64,000 bases of DNA from Alphaproteobacteria bacterium. Lineage in GTDB: Bacteria > Pseudomonadota > Alphaproteobacteria > MPNO01. The stretch covers positions 352,001 through 416,000 of the forward strand of contig OZ219866.1 in the NCBI GenBank assembly GCA_964291675.2, in the 5' to 3' direction. The position numbers and the translations under genes are program-made. Under the pieces are notes generated by a model. It was not told the DNA's origin, made no database searches, and was given only the letters and a program-made list of their open reading frames with translations. Below, piece after piece: positions 28,687-42,957 of this stretch (positions within the stretch are counted from its first letter, which is position 1; the number at the start of each line of letters is the position of its first letter).

Positions 28687-29682
28687 TCAAACGCGGAATA
28701 CCGACTGCACCTCTTCCGGGTAGAGATCCTCGGGCTCGAGCCTCCGGTGGCACAGCCCCTGGTCGTGGCAGAACCGCAGGAACGCCTCGATGGTCGGACG
28801 GTTGGGCTCGATCCCGTAGGGCCAGTAATCGCCGCCCGGGAAGATCTCGCCGCCGAGCTCGGGCACGGTGTCGTAGATCCACGGCACCGGGATCTGCGAA
28901 TGCGTCACGCTGGTGAGCCTGGCGACGCTCCGCTTCTTGGCCGCCTCGAAACCGTTCAGCAGGTTCATCGCGATCCACGGATGCCTGTCGTAGGTGTCGC
29001 GGCGGATCGCCACGGTGTGCATGATCGGGTAGATCCCGGTCCGCCGGAAATAGTCCTGCTCCTGCGTCCGGTAGTCGGGGATCAGGCGCACGATCCGCTC
29101 ATCCCCGTCGAGGAAGGCGCGCGGCGGGCGGGCGGAGACCAGCGCGTCGATATCGCCGGCGAGCAGCATCTCGGTGAGCGAGCGCCCGGGCACCTGGCGG
29201 TAGCTTATGCCTTCGGGGAGCTTGAGATGGGCGAGCTCGATGCGGCCCGGCTCGTTGACCCCGGCCTGCACCCATTCGACCTCGTCGAGCGCAATACCTG
29301 CATCCTCGGCGAGCCAGCCCCGGGCATAGACCGTCGCGGTCTGCGACCATTCGGGGATGCCGATCCGCTTGCCGGCGAGGTCGGCGACCGTCCCCACCCC
29401 GCCCCCGGCGGCGACATACCAGGCCGAATGCCGGAAAACCCGGGAGACGAAGACCGGAATGCCGGTGATCGGCGGGTCGGGCTGCGACACGATCGAGCAG
29501 TACTTGGCGAAGGAAAGCTCGGATACGTCCCACTCGAAGGCGCTCGCGAAGCGGTAGAAGATCTCCTCGACATCGAGGTTGAGCCAGGTGAGCTCGATGC
29601 CCTCGGCGTTGACCTTGCCCTGAAGCAGGTCGCGGGTGTGGTCGTACTCGTCCATCGCGAGCGTCAGGTGGATGTTCGCCAT
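28687..29682 (-). CDS. 4,5-dihydroxyphthalate decarboxylase-family protein
   Basis: YDHTRDL; DVSELS; PVFVSRVFRHS; GIPEWSQTA; TGIYPIMH; YWPYGIEPNR. Confidence 0.85.
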   Translation of the reverse strand: MANIHLTLAMDEYDHTRDLLQGKVNAEGIELTWLNLDVEEIFYRFASAFEWDVSELSFAKYCSIVSQPDPPITGIPVFVSRVFRHSAWYVAAGGGVGTVADLAGKRIGIPEWSQTATVYARGWLAEDAGIALDEVEWVQAGVNEPGRIELAHLKLPEGISYRQVPGRSLTEMLLAGDIDALVSARPPRAFLDGDERIVRLIPDYRTQEQDYFRRTGIYPIMHTVAIRRDTYDRHPWIAMNLLNGFEAAKKRSVARLTSVTHSQIPVPWIYDTVPELGGEIFPGGDYWPYGIEPNRPTIEAFLRFCHDQGLCHRRLEPEDLYPEEVQSVFRV

Positions 29683-29791
29683 TCGCTGCCTCCGCCAAGC
29701 GTGTCCGGCCGCGAGAGTGCCCTGTCGCCCGAGCGTGCGCAACGCTCCCCCGGCGGCTATGATGGCGCCCGCCGCAGACGGGGAGGATCGG

Positions 29792-30703
29792 GTGGCGAGG
29801 CGCGAGGACATCGACCCGCAGGCCGCGAAGGAAGAGATCTTCGCCTATTGCAAGCGCAAGGGCGCGCTCGCCGTCGGCGTCGCCGATCTGGAGGCGCTGG
29901 AGCGCATCGCACCGCCCGGCCACCGCCCGACCGACCTCATGCCGAGGGTGAAGTCGGTGATCGCGCTCGGCGTCGGCGGCCAGACCCAGGGGGCCTGGGC
30001 GCTGCCCGCCAAGGCGCTCGGCTATTTCGGCAGCACCGAGACGCGGGCCTACACCATCGCCTATGGCTGCGCCTTCTTCATCGAGAACCGCTTCGGCATC
30101 CGTTCGATCTACTGCCCGCCCGACATGGACACCGAGTCCGGGCCCAGGGTGCCGCTGCAAAGCCTCAAGCTGCACGCGGAGGTCGCCGGGATCGGCGCCC
30201 GCTCGTTCGCCGGCGACATCCTGCTGCACCCGGATTTCGGCTACATGTATTTCGCCTCGGTGTTCACCGAGCTCGAACTGCCGCCCGACGCGCCGATGGA
30301 GGAGAACCCCTGCCCTGCGCCGTCCTGCGTCAGCCTGTGGCGCAAGACCGGCCAGACCCCGTGCATGAAGTTCTGCCCCGTGCAGTGCCTGTCGGGCGAG
30401 ATCGACGCCGACGGCAACCAGGCGACGATGCGCTACGACATGGCGGCCTGCGCCGAGATGACCCAGCAATTCGAGGCGGTGCCGTCGATGATCGCCGATG
30501 CGGTCGAGGCCAGGGACGAGGTCGAGCGCGAGGACGCGCTGTTCGACGCCGACCAGAAGATCCTCTGGTACAAGATGTCGGTCGGCTCCGGCGGGCTGCT
30601 CGCCCAGTGCTTCGAATGCATGCGGGTCTGCCCGATCGCCACCCAGGCGCCGCAGGCCGACCCGATCCGGCGCTTCGAATACGCGGCCGACGACAGCGAC
30701 TGA
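29792..30703 (+). CDS. QueG / reductive-dehalogenase-like 4Fe-4S protein
   Basis: PGHRPTDLMPRVKSVI; SLKLHAEVAGIG; LLHPDFG; C-x4-C...C-x3-CP and CFECMRVCP; GGGAGG RBS before GTG. Confidence 0.75.
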   Translation: MARREDIDPQAAKEEIFAYCKRKGALAVGVADLEALERIAPPGHRPTDLMPRVKSVIALGVGGQTQGAWALPAKALGYFGSTETRAYTIAYGCAFFIENRFGIRSIYCPPDMDTESGPRVPLQSLKLHAEVAGIGARSFAGDILLHPDFGYMYFASVFTELELPPDAPMEENPCPAPSCVSLWRKTGQTPCMKFCPVQCLSGEIDADGNQATMRYDMAACAEMTQQFEAVPSMIADAVEARDEVEREDALFDADQKILWYKMSVGSGGLLAQCFECMRVCPIATQAPQADPIRRFEYAADDSD

Positions 30704-30751
30704 CGTCCCGGTTCCCAAGCTCCATGCCTTGCGCTGCCCTATCACTTCACC

Positions 30752-30838
30752 CGTCATGCCCGGACTTGTTCCGGGCATCTCTCTCCATGGGTTGCCTTGC
30801 GGGCGGCATGGATGGCCGGGACAAGTCCGGCCATGGCG
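30752..30838. repeat. Alphaproteobacterial REP-like palindromic element
   Basis: CGTCATGCCCGGACTTGTTCCGGGCATC ... GATGGCCGGGACAAGTCCGGCCATGGCG; arms are imperfect reverse complements and each forms a hairpin. Confidence 0.8.
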
Positions 30839-30888
30839 CGGTGGAGACAGGATACGAAAGCACAAGAAACTCTGAAACGGGACACTAG

Positions 30889-32277
30889 ATGACGCGCGGC
30901 CTCAACCGGGTCCAGATGGGTCTGACCGAGGAGATGATCGAGGCCTATGGCGAGACCATCTGGGACCTCAGCCACAACATCCAGGTCCGCATCGGCGATC
31001 CGGTGCGCATGCTCGAGTGGGATCAGATCGAGGCGCAGCGCGGCGGCGCCGGGCTCGCCGACGTCCAGATAGCCGAGCGCATCGGGCTCACCCGCGAACA
31101 GGTCACCCACATCCGCCTGCTGCTGGAGCACCGCAAGTTCCAGCGCCATCACTACCACCGGCTCTACGAGCTCGGCGGCGGACGGCGCTACCGGGCGGAG
31201 CGCTTCGTCCCGGTGGAACGGCGCGCGAGCCTCGGCGAACGGGCGATGGCGCTGCGCGCCGCCCTGAAATTCGACGCGGGCGAGGCCGAGCGCCACATCC
31301 GGACCGGACACTGGGGCGCGGCGACGCCCGCCAGCCGGCTGCGCGCGCTCGCCGCGGCGGACGGCCACGGCCTGGCGATCGACGGCGCGGACGGCGCGCT
31401 GGACTGGCGGGAAGCACTCGAACGGTCCCTGTCGCTCGCCGGCGGGCTGGCCGGGCGCGGCATCGGCCGCGGCGACGTGGTCGCGACGGTCGACCTCAGG
31501 CCGTCCTCGCTGCTGCCCGCCTATGCCGCGGCGTCGCTCTCCAGCGCCGTGCTGTGCCCGCTGCCGGACGCCCTGCCGCCGGAAACGCTGGAGACATGCC
31601 TGGAGCGGATCTCGGCGCGCCTGCTGATCGCCCGCGACGGCGCGGCGATCGAGGATTTGTGCGGCACGGTGCCGAAGGACTGGGACGGGGATGCGGTGGC
31701 GAGCGACCCGCTGGCGATCCTGTTCGCCGGGCTCGACGAGGGGACGCCGCGCGCCGCGGTCCACAACGCGCACACACTGCTGGCGGGCAACGACTGGGCG
31801 AGCGCGCGTTTCGCCCTGTCGCCGGCGGATCGCATCGCCGTCGCCGCGCCCGACCCGGCTTGCGCCGTCACCGCCGTCAACCTGGCGCTCGCCTCGGGGG
31901 CGGCGCTGTGCGAGGCGGGCGCGACGATCGCCGTCGGCGGCGCGCTGCCGGGCGCGCGGCTGACGCTCGCGGCGGATACGGGCTGCCGGGTCTGGATCGC
32001 GCCGGAGACCCAGCTCGCCCTCGCCGCCGCGCCGGATGCGTCCGAGGCGCCGATGCCGGCGCCCGGCGTGTCGCTGCGCCTGGTCGACCGGGACGGCAAC
32101 ATCCTTGCGGGCGAAGCAGAGGGCGCGCTGGAGCTCCGCGGCCCGAGTCTCGCGCCCTCCTATCTCGATGACGAGGAAGCGAACCGGAACCGCTTCACCG
32201 GCGACCGCTGGTGGCGCACCGGCCTGCGCGCGAGAATGGACGCCAGCGGAACGGTCGCGCTGCTGGGCAGGCATTGA
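30889..32277 (+). CDS. HTH-like domain fused to a degenerate, truncated AMP-binding (acyl-CoA ligase) domain
   Basis: GLADVQIAERIGLTREQVTHIR; GIGRGDVVA; EGALELRGPSLAPSYLDDEEAN; WWRTG; P-loop and C-subdomain missing. Confidence 0.72.
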   Translation: MTRGLNRVQMGLTEEMIEAYGETIWDLSHNIQVRIGDPVRMLEWDQIEAQRGGAGLADVQIAERIGLTREQVTHIRLLLEHRKFQRHHYHRLYELGGGRRYRAERFVPVERRASLGERAMALRAALKFDAGEAERHIRTGHWGAATPASRLRALAAADGHGLAIDGADGALDWREALERSLSLAGGLAGRGIGRGDVVATVDLRPSSLLPAYAAASLSSAVLCPLPDALPPETLETCLERISARLLIARDGAAIEDLCGTVPKDWDGDAVASDPLAILFAGLDEGTPRAAVHNAHTLLAGNDWASARFALSPADRIAVAAPDPACAVTAVNLALASGAALCEAGATIAVGGALPGARLTLAADTGCRVWIAPETQLALAAAPDASEAPMPAPGVSLRLVDRDGNILAGEAEGALELRGPSLAPSYLDDEEANRNRFTGDRWWRTGLRARMDASGTVALLGRH

Positions 32278-32296
32278 GCGAGGCAGGGAGACCGGC

Positions 32297-32986
32297 ATGA
32301 GCTACGCCATACCCTTCGCCGGCCCTCCGACGGTCGGCATCGCGGGCGGCGATCTCCGCTTCCCTGTGCGCCGGATCTACACCATCGGGCGCAACTACGC
32401 CGCCCATGCCGCGGAAACCGGGCTGGGCGGGGCCGGCGGCTCGAAGCCGGGCGTTTCGCTCAAGCCCGCGGATTCGGTGATCCCCGACGGCAGCGCCCTG
32501 CCCTACCCGCCGGGGACCGCGCAGCTGGAGCCGGAGGTCGAGATGGTCGCCGCCATCGGCAAGGGCGGCGCCGACATCCCGCGCGCAGCCGCGCTCGACC
32601 ACGTCTTCGGCTACGCCGTCGGCTTCGACATGATCCGGCGCGACATCATGCATGCCTGCATCGCCGACCAGCATTCCTGGGATCTCTGCAAGAGCTTCGA
32701 CGGCGCATCGCCGATCGGCGACCTCGCCCCCGCCGGGGACATCGGCCATCCCGCGAGCGGCGCGATCGCGCTCGCCATCAACGGGGCGGAGCGCCAGCGG
32801 GGCGATCTGTCGGAGCTGATCTGGCCGGTCGCGGAGATCGTCGCGCGGCTGTCGGCGCTGAGCCGGCTGGAGCCGGGCGACCTGATCTTCACCGGCACCC
32901 CCAAGGGGCCGGGCAAGGTCGAGCGCGGCGACCGGCTGGAGGGCGTCATCGAGGGGATCGGCAGCCTCGCCATCGACATCGCGTGA
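32297..32986 (+). CDS. Fumarylacetoacetate hydrolase family protein
   Basis: RRIYTIGRNYAAHA; EVEM; FDMIRRD; KSFD; GDLIFTGTP. Confidence 0.9.
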   Translation: MSYAIPFAGPPTVGIAGGDLRFPVRRIYTIGRNYAAHAAETGLGGAGGSKPGVSLKPADSVIPDGSALPYPPGTAQLEPEVEMVAAIGKGGADIPRAAALDHVFGYAVGFDMIRRDIMHACIADQHSWDLCKSFDGASPIGDLAPAGDIGHPASGAIALAINGAERQRGDLSELIWPVAEIVARLSALSRLEPGDLIFTGTPKGPGKVERGDRLEGVIEGIGSLAIDIA

Positions 32987-33004: not shown

Positions 33005-33511
33005 TCAGGATATCGGATCGGTCAACCCCGCCGGCAGGCGGGTCCGCGCGGTCAGATGCGCGCGGGCGAGCTGGTCGGGCTTCAGGCTGAGCACGGAGGA
33101 GAGATCGGCACCGTCGAGATTGGCATCGTCGAGCACGGCGTGGAGGAGATCGGCCCCCGCGAGATCGGCGTCCAAGAGCTCGGCGCCGGAGAGATCGGCC
33201 CGCACCAGCTCCGCCCCGGCGAGCCGCGCGCCGCGCAAGCTCGCACCCGTCAGCACGGCATCGTGCAGGAAGGCGCCGCCGAGATCGGCCCCGGCCAGAT
33301 CGGCGCTCCGGAGCTCGGCGCGCCTGAGCTCGGCCCGGCGCAGGCTCGCCCCGGCGAACAGCGCCCCGTGCAGGGTGTAGCCGTGCAGATTCGCGCCGTC
33401 GAGATCGAGCCCGCTGAAATCGCCCCGCTCGCCGCCCTTGCCGGCGCTCAGCACCCAGCTCAGATGGCGCTCGAAGCGCTTGCGGAACGCCTCCGCGTCG
33501 ATCGTCTCCAC
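33005..33511 (-). CDS. Pentapeptide repeat protein
   Basis: Tandem A(D/E/S/N)Lxx repeats; GTG start inferred. Confidence 0.87.
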   Translation of the reverse strand: METIDAEAFRKRFERHLSWVLSAGKGGERGDFSGLDLDGANLHGYTLHGALFAGASLRRAELRRAELRSADLAGADLGGAFLHDAVLTGASLRGARLAGAELVRADLSGAELLDADLAGADLLHAVLDDANLDGADLSSVLSLKPDQLARAHLTARTRLPAGLTDPIS

Positions 33512-33664
33512 CGCCGTTCCCCGTGACCCTTCGACACCGCGCCGGCACGGTGTTGAAACAGCTCGCGAATTGCAAGCCCGCAAGGGGTGGCGATCGAACG
33601 CGCAGGACGGCACAATTGCGTCCTCCCCCGCGTAACTTGGCTGGGCAACAAGGGCGAGACCGAC

Positions 33665-34558
33665 ATGCAGAGCGTTGAGACGAAGCACAATCTTAGGTTG
33701 TCTCGGAGGACGGTCTCGCTGTTCTGCGCTGTGCTGGTGTCCGGAACCGGTCTGTTCCTGTCACCCGACCGGACGCAGGCGGCTCGCCCGGGAGGTCCAC
33801 CGACGTGTACGGTCGACAACATCACGGGCCCCTGTCGCTTCATCCGCACGATCAAGACTATCAAGGCGGACCACGACAAATACGTGTCGAACCGTTCGAT
33901 TCTATGGATCGAAAAGGCCTACCTGTCGCGCGAGGAGGCGATGCACCTGCACGAGAGGATCGACAAGGGCATCGGCGATGTCGAGAACGCGCTTGGATTG
34001 AAATTCGCGGCCGAAGTCTACGGCCAGGAAAAGATCGAGTTCTTCGTCCACGGGGCGCGCAGACCTTCGCACACGATTACCGCCTATTGGCCGCGGCGCT
34101 TCCTGCACCCGGTCATCTTCCTCACCTACGCCAAGGGGCGAAGAACGCCCTACCTGCACGAGATCGTCCATATCGTCGCCTGGGACTGGCACGCGCTGTG
34201 GCTCAAGGAAGGGCTGGCGGTGGTCTTGAACGACCGGTTGGGCGGCTATCGCGCTTTCCCGAATTTCGGCCGGTCGCTGGACAACCTGGCGCGGGAATTC
34301 GACGGGGGCGGCTCGTTCCCCGCGACGGCGGCGATGGACCTGATCGGCCAGAACGGCGTACCGGAGTTCGACAACCGGAAGGTACGGCGGATCTTCTATA
34401 TCTTCGCAGGCTCGTTCGTGGCCTATCTGGAACGCAAGATCGGGCTGCCGGTGCTGATGAAAATCTATTCGGCGGAAGACACCGCGGCCGCCATTCTCCG
34501 GCTGACGGGAAAACCGGTGGGGCAGTGGAAAGCCGAATGGCGTCGAGAGTTCTACTAG
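33665..34558 (+). CDS. Exported gluzincin-type zinc metallopeptidase
   Basis: Signal-like N terminus; YLHEIVH...WLKEGLA; AGSFVAYL. Confidence 0.7.
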   Translation: MQSVETKHNLRLSRRTVSLFCAVLVSGTGLFLSPDRTQAARPGGPPTCTVDNITGPCRFIRTIKTIKADHDKYVSNRSILWIEKAYLSREEAMHLHERIDKGIGDVENALGLKFAAEVYGQEKIEFFVHGARRPSHTITAYWPRRFLHPVIFLTYAKGRRTPYLHEIVHIVAWDWHALWLKEGLAVVLNDRLGGYRAFPNFGRSLDNLAREFDGGGSFPATAAMDLIGQNGVPEFDNRKVRRIFYIFAGSFVAYLERKIGLPVLMKIYSAEDTAAAILRLTGKPVGQWKAEWRREFY

Positions 34559-41363: not shown

Positions 41364-41385
41364 TACCTCCCCCCGGTTGCAAGAC

Positions 41386-42957
41386 ATGACGCAGACTAGC
41401 CCCGCTGCCGGGTCCGAATTCTGGACCGACGACACGCTGACCAGCCTGCTGGAACGCTGCGTGCGGGACCGCGGCGATGCGCCGGCGATCCTCACCGCCG
41501 GGGAGGTCGTCGACTGGCGCGGCGTCGCCGAGCGGGTCGATGCGCTGGCCGGCGGGCTCGCCGCGCTCGGCATCGGCCGCGGCGATGCGGTCGCGGTCCA
41601 GCTCCCCAACCTTCCGGCTTTCCTCTACGTGCTGCTCGCCGCATCCCGCCTCGGCGCGGTGACCAGCACCATCCACATGCCATACGGCCCGCGCGAGGCC
41701 GCGGACATCATTCGCCATGCCCGCGCCCGGCTCGTGTTCGCCGCGGCGGCGGCGGGCGAAAGGCGACCGGCCGCCGACATCGCCGCGCTCGGGCCGGACC
41801 TCCCCTCGCTCGCCCATGTCGTCGCCGTGGGCGGCCCGGCGGCCGCCGGCACGCTCGCCCTCGACGACGTGCCGCGCCCCGGCGCCGCGCTGCCGCCGCC
41901 GCCCGCAGCGGACGACGCCTATGTCATGCTGTTCACCTCCGGCACGTCGTCGAGCCCGAAGGCGGTGCTCACCGACTATCGCCGGTTCCTCGCCAACGCC
42001 CGGCTCAATTGCAGCGAAAAGCAGATGGGTCCGGGCTCGATCATGCTGTCGGCAGCGCCCTACAGCCACCTGTTCGGGCTGTATTCGTTCCACCTCACGC
42101 TCTATGGCGGCGGCGCGACGGCGCTGCTGCCGGCGTTCACGCCCCCCGGCCTGGTCGAGGCGGTACAGGCTTTCCGGCCGACCCACATCTTCGCCGCGCC
42201 TGCGCATATCGCCTCCTGCCTCGGCGCCGGGCTGCTCGGAGGCGACACGCTCGCCCCGGTCCGCTACTGCGTGGTCTCGGGCGCCAAGGCCGCGCCGGAG
42301 TTCTACCGCCGGGCGCAGGCGGCGCTGGGGAGCGGCCGCATCGCGCAGCTCTGGGGGATGACCGAGTGCCAGTGCGGCATGTTCACCCGGCCCTGGGAGG
42401 ATGCCGAGCGGGCGGCATGGGGCTGCGGACGGCCGAGCCCGGGAAACCGAGCCAGGGTGTGCGATGCGGACGACGAGCCGCTGCCGGCGGGCGAGGAGGG
42501 CGCGTTGCAGATCCGCGGCGCCTCGGTGTTCGACGGCTATCACGGCAATGACGAGGCCAACGCGGCCGCGTTCACCGCCGATGGCTGGTACCGCACCGGC
42601 GACCGGGCGGTGATCGACGCGACCGGCGCGGTGTCGATCACCGGGCGCGAGAAGGATTTGATCAACCGGGGCGGCGTGAAGATCAACCCGGCCGATGTCG
42701 AGGAGGCGATCGACCGCCACCCGGATATCGTCCAGTCGGCGATCGTCCCCATGCCGGACCCGGTGCTGGGCGAGCGGGCGTGCTGCTTCGCCATCCCCCG
42801 CGACGGCGCGGCGCCCGAGCTCGGCGATCTCGCGGCCTGGCTCGAAAGCCACGGGATCGCCAGGCTGAAATGGCCGGAGCGGCTGATCCTGGTCGACGAC
42901 ATGCCGCTGACCCCGACCCGGAAGGTGATCAAGGGACGCCTCCGGATCCCCGATTGA
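41386..42957 (+). CDS. Acyl-CoA synthetase (cyclohexanecarboxylate-CoA ligase-like)
   Basis: FTSGTSSSPK; WGMTE; WYRTGD; GREKDLINRGG; PDPVLGERAC; KWPE; TPTRK. Confidence 0.9.
   Translation: MTQTSPAAGSEFWTDDTLTSLLERCVRDRGDAPAILTAGEVVDWRGVAERVDALAGGLAALGIGRGDAVAVQLPNLPAFLYVLLAASRLGAVTSTIHMPYGPREAADIIRHARARLVFAAAAAGERRPAADIAALGPDLPSLAHVVAVGGPAAAGTLALDDVPRPGAALPPPPAADDAYVMLFTSGTSSSPKAVLTDYRRFLANARLNCSEKQMGPGSIMLSAAPYSHLFGLYSFHLTLYGGGATALLPAFTPPGLVEAVQAFRPTHIFAAPAHIASCLGAGLLGGDTLAPVRYCVVSGAKAAPEFYRRAQAALGSGRIAQLWGMTECQCGMFTRPWEDAERAAWGCGRPSPGNRARVCDADDEPLPAGEEGALQIRGASVFDGYHGNDEANAAAFTADGWYRTGDRAVIDATGAVSITGREKDLINRGGVKINPADVEEAIDRHPDIVQSAIVPMPDPVLGERACCFAIPRDGAAPELGDLAAWLESHGIARLKWPERLILVDDMPLTPTRKVIKGRLRIPD

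Follow-up and report, generated by a model that had tools for sequence, protein, structure and literature searches.

The closest described relatives of the protein reported here are the ANL, or class I adenylate-forming, enzymes, represented by the malonyl-CoA ligase MatB (PDB 3nyq and 4fut). The protein, 462 amino acids (aa) long, is encoded at 30889..32277 (+) of a 64,000-nucleotide (nt) stretch of DNA from an Alphaproteobacteria bacterium (assembly GCA_964291675.2, contig OZ219866.1, positions 352,001 to 416,000; hereafter the window), downstream of a gene for an iron-sulfur (Fe-S) protein at 29759..30703 (+). It shares the homologous N-terminal subdomain fold with the ANL enzymes and with an ordinary, intact ligase of the window (41377..42957; TTG start, with an ATG three codons in at 41386), which was used as the comparison ligase. 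It differs from them in an internal deletion and in the loss of the A3, A5, A7, A8, and A10 motif patterns and the C-terminal subdomain (C-subdomain), whereas its own full-length relatives carry all canonical motifs; it also has an extra N-terminal domain of ~115 aa (N-domain) that ordinary ligases, including the window's own, lack. For the upstream partner, the nearest systems are QueG and the RdhA reductive dehalogenases, which it resembles in overall layout and in being rich in cysteine, with a CxxCxxxCP motif, but it falls far below the QueG cut-off and has a cysteine spacing of its own (C185-x4-C190 ... C202-x3-C206). We know of no dedicated ligase-borne docking subunit for QueG or RdhA. 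Two further systems can be compared with the N-domain. Sigma-70 region 4 bound by anti-sigma factors (3hug, 1rp3, 8jzt, and 6dxo) provides the best fold matches to residues 13-85, and in those structures the helix-turn-helix (HTH) contacts a protein partner; the N-domain differs in that it matches at Z 5-6.5, belongs to no sequence family, and has a predicted interface dominated by a non-HTH loop (residues 28-40) and an LGGGRR motif. BirA, a bifunctional ligase and repressor of a different enzyme class, likewise carries an N-terminal HTH-like domain on an adenylate-forming protein and has a defined operator, whereas no shared operator was found in the regions searched upstream of the pair and the N-domain tracks a protein partner. 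A full-text literature search, judged by titles and the start of abstracts, returned nothing relevant on the gene pair, and the two-gene module appears to be undescribed.

Our preferred reading, to which we assign a probability of roughly 0.6, is that the 462-aa protein has no catalytic activity and serves an uncharacterised Fe-S enzyme of the QueG/RdhA-like type as a subunit or adaptor, that it docks to this enzyme through its N-domain, and that it derives from a tethered ligase. A contig scan for the target gene returned 80 loci, which together with the window give 81 rows, 76 of them complete. All 80 loci have the Fe-S gene immediately 5' of the target gene in the same orientation, at 67-97% identity, whereas identity of the ligase-like gene drops to 29-46% once the close clade is left. 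Of the 79 loci with an Fe-S open reading frame (ORF) call, 71 have an intergenic distance of -4 to +10 nt, and stop and start codons usually abut. The association was also seen in a 401-genome sample of the class, in which 21 Fe-S matches occurred in 15 genomes. An N-domain gene was located immediately 3' of every one of the 19 strong matches (E 1e-126 or better; by coordinates in 17), and the two weak matches (~35% identity, both at L164) had no N-domain gene downstream. The profile used for this sample spans the whole ligase and matched 374 of the 401 genomes; the rows used were those starting at profile positions 1-10, with three candidates scored per genome. Genomes of the sample that are flagged as unpublished underpin none of the claims made here.

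The N-domain also occurs without a ligase body. In two genomes of one genus (L162, G381:C15; L163, G261:C28), an N-domain-only ORF of ~105 aa plus a stop codon follows the Fe-S gene after ~10 nt, and this Fe-S gene is ~71% identical to that of locus L031. Both genomes hold a second pair as well (L166 and L167), in which the dead body measures 479-530 aa and next to which stands an ordinary ligase gene. Across L165-L167, an Fe-S gene of 53-55% identity is followed by an N-domain plus dead body (479-547 aa), and the adjoining ordinary ligase, which has no N-domain, could supply the activity in trans. The N-domain, not the ligase, is the constant companion of the Fe-S gene. The stand-alone form is counted from L162 and L163 only. 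Short database proteins that look like free N-domains (P0103, P0123, P0125, P0134, P0121, P0130, P0151, and others) were left uncounted, as their tails are mostly out of frame in appearance. An N-domain-GNAT fusion (P0137) was set aside as a probable chimeric assembly: its halves come from two separate families, both of them common and both with the 'FDPER' junction, and the metagenome scan found no locus with the fusion. In that scan, 79 of 80 loci matched the GNAT half only (MarR-GNAT proteins), and the sole N-domain match, L082, was a full-length ligase with an upstream Fe-S gene.

The preliminary description of this gene, prepared from the DNA alone, did not recognise its architecture. The N-domain proves to be the hallmark of a whole ligase subfamily, most members of which are catalytically intact. 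A word-index search returned 96 relatives, and all length groups cover the entire query, including the N-domain: proteins of 462-478 aa (71-92% identity to the query), some of them named Defluviicoccus 'class I adenylate-forming enzyme family protein'; 423-495 aa (44-53%); 538-566 aa (32-38%); and 650-672 aa (31-37%), the last with both PF00501 and PF13193. Each complete row of the locus set was scored against five ligase motif patterns, namely A3 ([ST][ST]G[ST][ST]xxPK), A5 (WGMTE type), A7 (RTGD), the A8 hinge (GRxKD), and the A10 lysine. Full-length proteins (at least 610 aa) make up 55 of the 76 rows, and 53 of them match all five patterns, the two exceptions being minor A3 variants (Lys to Arg in L017, TISAPK in L046). 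Among the 21 rows shorter than 610 aa, 19 match no pattern, and L039 and L052 match one each. Similarly, P-loop, A7 Asp, and C-subdomain are all missing from 25 of 35 diverse cluster representatives of an all-against-all search, and termination at the hinge is frequent. In a maximum-likelihood tree of the 76 rows (five incomplete rows dropped), the window falls within a 17-member alphaproteobacterial clade consisting entirely of truncated forms (support 99), while three gammaproteobacterial proteins that end at the hinge form a group nested within full-length ones (support 99). As these are two separate truncated groups, the C-subdomain was lost at least twice independently in lineages that persisted.

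Loss of catalytic motifs would also be expected of a decaying pseudogene remnant without function, which is the least credible of the explanations considered. Two members of the family do look like recent breaks: L047 (345 aa), on a very short branch beside full-length L046, and L011 (365 aa) are both far shorter than their close relatives and are probably recent breaks or assembly errors. In addition, a repeat insertion uncouples the window's gene from the gene upstream. Nevertheless, 17 genomes retain an open frame of similar length across 35-92% identity, the same architecture recurs in many diverse clusters, and the predicted structure is confident. The ratio of nonsynonymous to synonymous substitutions (dN/dS; Nei-Gojobori, 12 pairs from the clade of the window) comes to 0.06-0.30 in the N-domain (residues 1-115) and 0.19-0.41 in the ligase remnant (residues 161-462), well below 1 in both parts. 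The 462-aa gene is kept by purifying selection (dN/dS 0.2-0.4) and is not decaying. The preliminary description, which took intact motifs in close homologues as the sign of a decaying copy, survives this check: close homologues (71-92%) are also motif-dead and only distant ones (29-46%) are intact.

The anatomy of the protein is that of a shortened, dead ligase behind an unannotated domain. Its frame is a single unbroken run of 462 codons, as first reported, in a genome of ~70% G+C. A Pfam scan found PF00501 (AMP-binding) alone, in two stretches (E 2.3e-16, 60 bits, cut-off 29.9), and no Pfam or NCBIfam match to residues 1 to ~140 at E 0.1 or better. Alignment with the window's ordinary ligase starts in a segment comprising the linker and the first helices of the ligase fold (residues 116-160; 31234..31368, +; dN/dS 0.07-0.75), beyond which the reduced ANL N-subdomain occupies residues 161-462 (31369..32274, +) and carries an internal deletion of ~45 alignment columns relative to that ligase. 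Every motif change listed in the preliminary description is real when set against the window ligase and the homologues. Specifically, the A3 P-loop reads FAGLDEGTPR (residues 279-288; 31723..31752, +) in place of FTSGTSSSPK, A5 reads WIAPET (residues 369-374; 31993..32010, +) in place of WGMTE, with E373 still conserved, and A7 reads RTGL (residues 443-446; 32215..32226, +) in place of RTGD, so that its Asp is lost. The A7 Asp is the ribose-binding residue. The protein then ends at the A8 hinge with LLGRH and the stop codon (32260..32277, +), where the reference continues as ITGREKD, and it has neither the C-subdomain, a PF13193 match, nor the A10 lysine. With all five motif patterns failed, the ligase body is, on its sequence, a pseudoenzyme, as had been suggested.

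The body is nonetheless predicted to be intact as a fold. An AlphaFold model of the 462-aa protein built with 68 homologues has a mean predicted local distance difference test score (pLDDT) of 87, mostly above 90 from residue 120 on, and Foldseek matches the model to adenylation-domain cores at E 2e-21, with template modeling scores of 0.56-0.66; PDB sequence matches to the body were found at E ~1e-10. Because the model is confident and its matches are adenylation cores, we regard the body as a well-folded, reduced ANL N-subdomain, and together with the conservation of M1 and other N-domain positions these results indicate that 30889..32277 is not a chance ORF. Could the remnant still be an enzyme, adenylating or catalysing another reaction with the missing parts supplied in trans? 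E373 and several other fold positions are invariant, the remnant evolves at a dN/dS of ~0.3, and in L165-L167 the pair has an ordinary ligase gene beside it. Set against the loss of all five motifs and of ~45 columns of the fold, and with no C-subdomain-only gene seen beside the pair in the window, this explanation is very improbable.

We next consider the N-domain (residues 1-115; 30889..31233, +), which is the best-conserved part of the family (86-94% identity within the clade, versus 66-89% for the body) and is present in one copy in the window's genome. Among the 68 homologues, M1 and ~35 positions within residues 1-115 reach a conservation of 90% or more. Conservation is prominent in a loop, SHNIQVRIGDPVR (residues 28-40; 30970..31008, +), in which S28, N30, Q32, R34, D37, P38, and R40 are invariant and G36 nearly so in the 68-row alignment, and in an LGGGRRY motif (residues 95-101; 31171..31191, +), in which L95, G96, G97, G98, and R100 are invariant family-wide; G55, D58, R76, and E80 are further invariant positions. 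The HTH-like string GLADVQIAERIGLTREQVTHIR (residues 55-76; 31051..31116, +) and the basic, His-rich HRKFQRHHYHR (residues 81-91), both pointed out in the preliminary description of this unannotated domain, are indeed present; the latter is part of an Arg/His-rich basic segment spanning residues 81-105. The models place helices at residues 58-65 and 69-83. The domain is basic, with an isoelectric point (pI) of 9.4 compared with 4.6 for the Fe-S protein (family medians 9.9 and 5.4), a charge complementarity that fits protein docking and DNA binding alike.

The fold of this domain was less clear-cut. Folded alone, it gives a model of pLDDT 76, in which the LGGGRRY motif has low pLDDT. Foldseek found no PDB match to this model at E 0.001 or better, and the ESM Atlas gave no usable match to residues 1-125. 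VIA-align aligned 44-53 residues within 13-85 at a root mean square deviation of ~2-3 Å, and nearly all of its top 50 rows are HTH domains, including DeoR/SorC N-termini, sigma-70 region 4, LuxR/NarL, and small terminase; the Z values of 5-6.5 lie under the tool's bar of 8. Since Foldseek was empty and Z stayed below 8, an HTH-like fold for the core is plausible but not secure, and the HTH assignment of the preliminary description stands for residues 13-85 as a resemblance of moderate strength.

On the basis of this domain, the gene had been put forward as a new one-component regulator, in which the HTH would bind DNA and the dead body would sense a carboxylate or acyl-CoA; full-length relatives would then be BirA-like in combining enzyme and repressor. 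The matches to DeoR/SorC, sigma-70 region 4, and LuxR, the basic charge of the domain, and a well-folded remnant under purifying selection, which could still bind a ligand, are compatible with such a role. However, no Pfam or NCBIfam HTH family recognises the domain, and an operator search over -250 to +20 of the Fe-S start in 66 non-redundant loci found no shared k-mer or palindrome above shuffle levels, despite a putative recognition helix that is nearly invariant. This search yielded only GC-rich k-mers near shuffle levels, with a few 10-mers common to 7 loci that possibly derive from a neighbouring gene. The stretch 30704-30888, one of two offered as DNA-binding targets, is a dispersed repeat insertion and not an operator. 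Moreover, the strictly conserved loop at 28-40 and the LGGGRR motif, which are outside the HTH, both fall in a predicted protein interface, as do helix residues 73-86, and the abutment of stop and start codons with an enzyme gene, together with N-domain-only ORFs, fits a subunit better. The regulator is therefore less likely than a subunit or adaptor, and we consider it unlikely: its N-domain tracks the Fe-S gene (80 of 80 loci; 19 of 19 strong matches), occurs alone after that gene, and is predicted to bind the Fe-S protein.

The evidence for this binding is a complex prediction with controls, conducted for the Fe-S protein and residues 1-147 of the target in three runs with our own alignments. 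The predicted complex scored an interaction prediction score from aligned errors (ipSAE) of 0.88 (0.89, 0.88, and 0.88 in the runs) versus 0.37 for the best control, with 144-156 contacts, agreement between runs on at least 84% of contacts, and a partner pLDDT of at least 76. The pass mark is reached by 116 of 157 solved complexes and by 2 of 215 mismatched pairs, counts that are only a rough guide here, where the alignments were our own. Sequence searches returned no solved relative of the Fe-S family apart from marginal QueG matches, so it is improbable that the predictor merely reproduced a known structure of the complex. In the model, the lowest-error contacts join N-domain residues 30-36 to Fe-S residues 222-228; the interface further includes N-domain residues 55-60, 73, 77, 80-81, and 83-86 and the LGGGRR motif, and its Fe-S half adjoins the cysteine motifs (204-209 and 284-290).

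The Fe-S protein itself (314 aa, acidic, cysteine-rich) is extremely conserved, with more than 100 invariant columns among 68 sequences and nine invariant cysteines (C185, C190, C202, C206, C210, C231, C284, C287, and C291) that include the CxxCxxxCP motif. The QueG model TIGR00276 gives it 23.4 bits against a cut-off of 200 (20.2 bits at the locus in a genome-wide search), and PDB QueG structures, including 5d08, match it marginally (E 0.08-0.19). Alignment by hhalign with a QueG-like paralogue of its own genome gave 86% probability and E 4.8e-6 over 210 columns, some family members, among 699 matches to the Fe-S family, are named QueG by the Joint Genome Institute, and the ESM Atlas returned only generic '4Fe-4S' or hypothetical clusters. 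Taken together, these weak but consistent similarities suggest membership in a QueG/RdhA-like family. In the window's genome no protein matches above the curated QueG cut-off; six further sub-threshold matches were noted, three of them within ~8 kb on contig 1 (L169-L171: G000:C2:993810, C1:577311-584704, and C2:1403621). At L164 (G369:C16), two distant Fe-S paralogues (~35% identity) stand in tandem with no N-domain gene, and one of them has an internal TAA.

Epoxyqueuosine reductase, QueG, acts on tRNA. The likeness of the partner to QueG, the basic Arg/His-rich segment at 81-105, and the HTH-like fold therefore bring to mind a dual role, in which the N-domain would dock to the Fe-S protein and also bind tRNA or another RNA, making the pair an RNA-modifying system. 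We think this quite unlikely, as the QueG similarity is marginal (23 bits versus 200), the full-length forms adjoin genes of organic-acid catabolism and uptake rather than RNA modification, and much of the basic segment falls within the predicted protein interface.

In the arrangement that we favour, with the 462-aa protein as a subunit or adaptor of the Fe-S enzyme, residues ~1-115 would be an HTH-like fold used for protein docking. This domain would wrap onto the cluster-binding part of the Fe-S protein, its loop at 30-36 adding a strand beside Fe-S residues 222-228. In the presumed ancestral form, which is also the commonest, the N-domain would tether an active acyl-CoA ligase to the Fe-S enzyme, and the activated acid would presumably be passed to the reductase. 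The lineage of the window would then have lost the ATP-binding motifs and the whole C-subdomain, which would leave the remnant unable to adenylate, while selection kept the docking domain and the compact remnant as a scaffold or perhaps as a substrate-binding lid. A bolder version, which we hold only tentatively and regard as doubtful in its full extent, describes the pair as a two-subunit Fe-S oxidoreductase, possibly cobalamin-dependent, whose obligate small subunit is an HTH-derived docking clamp. The ancestral clamp would have carried a whole ligase, coupling acid activation to reduction; the ligase would have been repeatedly fossilised or discarded, and the clamp retained as indispensable to the activity or folding of the Fe-S enzyme.

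Several observations weigh against the subunit or adaptor interpretation. Binding of the N-domain to the Fe-S protein is a model prediction, and its interface on the N-domain is not significantly enriched in conserved positions (15 of 35 conserved positions lie in it, and it takes up 43 of 114 positions; Fisher p 0.29), with only modest enrichment on the Fe-S side (37/150; p 0.019). An Fe-S insert unique to partnered forms was considered and rejected, as L164a and L170, which have no N-domain partner, possess a comparable docking segment. The N-domain is basic and finds its top structural matches among DNA-binding HTH domains, so that nucleic-acid binding is still conceivable. The Fe-S protein scores far below the QueG family cut-off, and any chemistry proposed for it is conjectural. 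Finally, in the window's strain a repeat puts 185 nt between the two genes, and translational coupling has thereby been lost there.

This spacer (30704..30888) is a dispersed palindromic repeat resembling repetitive extragenic palindromic sequences or miniature inverted-repeat transposable elements. It has 74 matches in the window's own genome and is predicted to form a hairpin of -91.8 kcal/mol (z -5.06). In L001 and L011 the position that holds the repeat in the window is a TAG|ATG junction with nothing in between. Four sequencing runs, three of them RNA-library runs belonging to two studies, have contigs in which 30698 is joined to 30884 and exactly 185 nt are skipped; relatives without the insertion therefore exist. 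One RNA-library contig of 949 nt extends from the Fe-S gene to the first part of the target gene. It weakly suggests that the pair is co-transcribed, as such libraries can hold DNA and contigs are not single transcripts. RNA-library contigs leave most of 31300-32300 uncovered, a gap that carries no information on transcription, and a promoter and terminator scan of 29500-32400 returned none of either.

Outside the pair, the genomic surroundings vary. The other neighbours in the window (PhtD-like, cyclophilin, FAA hydrolase, and MFS genes) recur in near relatives only. Full-length pairs have varied neighbours, among them LIV-type ABC transporter, TctC, enoyl-CoA hydratase, SDR, and RidA genes and AraC and TetR regulators. 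These are typical of organic-acid uptake and catabolism and fit a ligase whose activated acid would enter a subsequent redox reaction.

With these comparisons, what had seemed a lone oddity becomes a member of a widespread and unannotated gene pair whose carriers are Alpha-, Beta-, and Gammaproteobacteria, most of them uncultured. In it, an Fe-S enzyme of extreme conservation is coupled with what we take to be its own docking domain, for which Pfam and NCBIfam have no entry. Active ligase, dead ligase, and docking domain alone form a natural series for the passage from enzyme to pseudoenzyme subunit, and the intact ligases borne on the same module offer a direct route to the substrate of the Fe-S enzyme, through a screen for the activated acid. 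Applied to the truncated forms, the label 'class I adenylate-forming enzyme family protein' misleads.

Two neighbouring genes were noted in passing. A divergently transcribed gene at 28687-29682 (-) has weak NMT1/SsuA-like matches, and its product most likely starts at an internal Met (MANIHL...); it is syntenic with the pair in 21 of 80 loci, some of which carry full-length ligases. On the other side, 3' of the FAA-hydrolase gene, an ORF at 33005-33688 (-) appears by eye to encode a pentapeptide-repeat-like protein and is kept in 14 of 80 loci, all near relatives.

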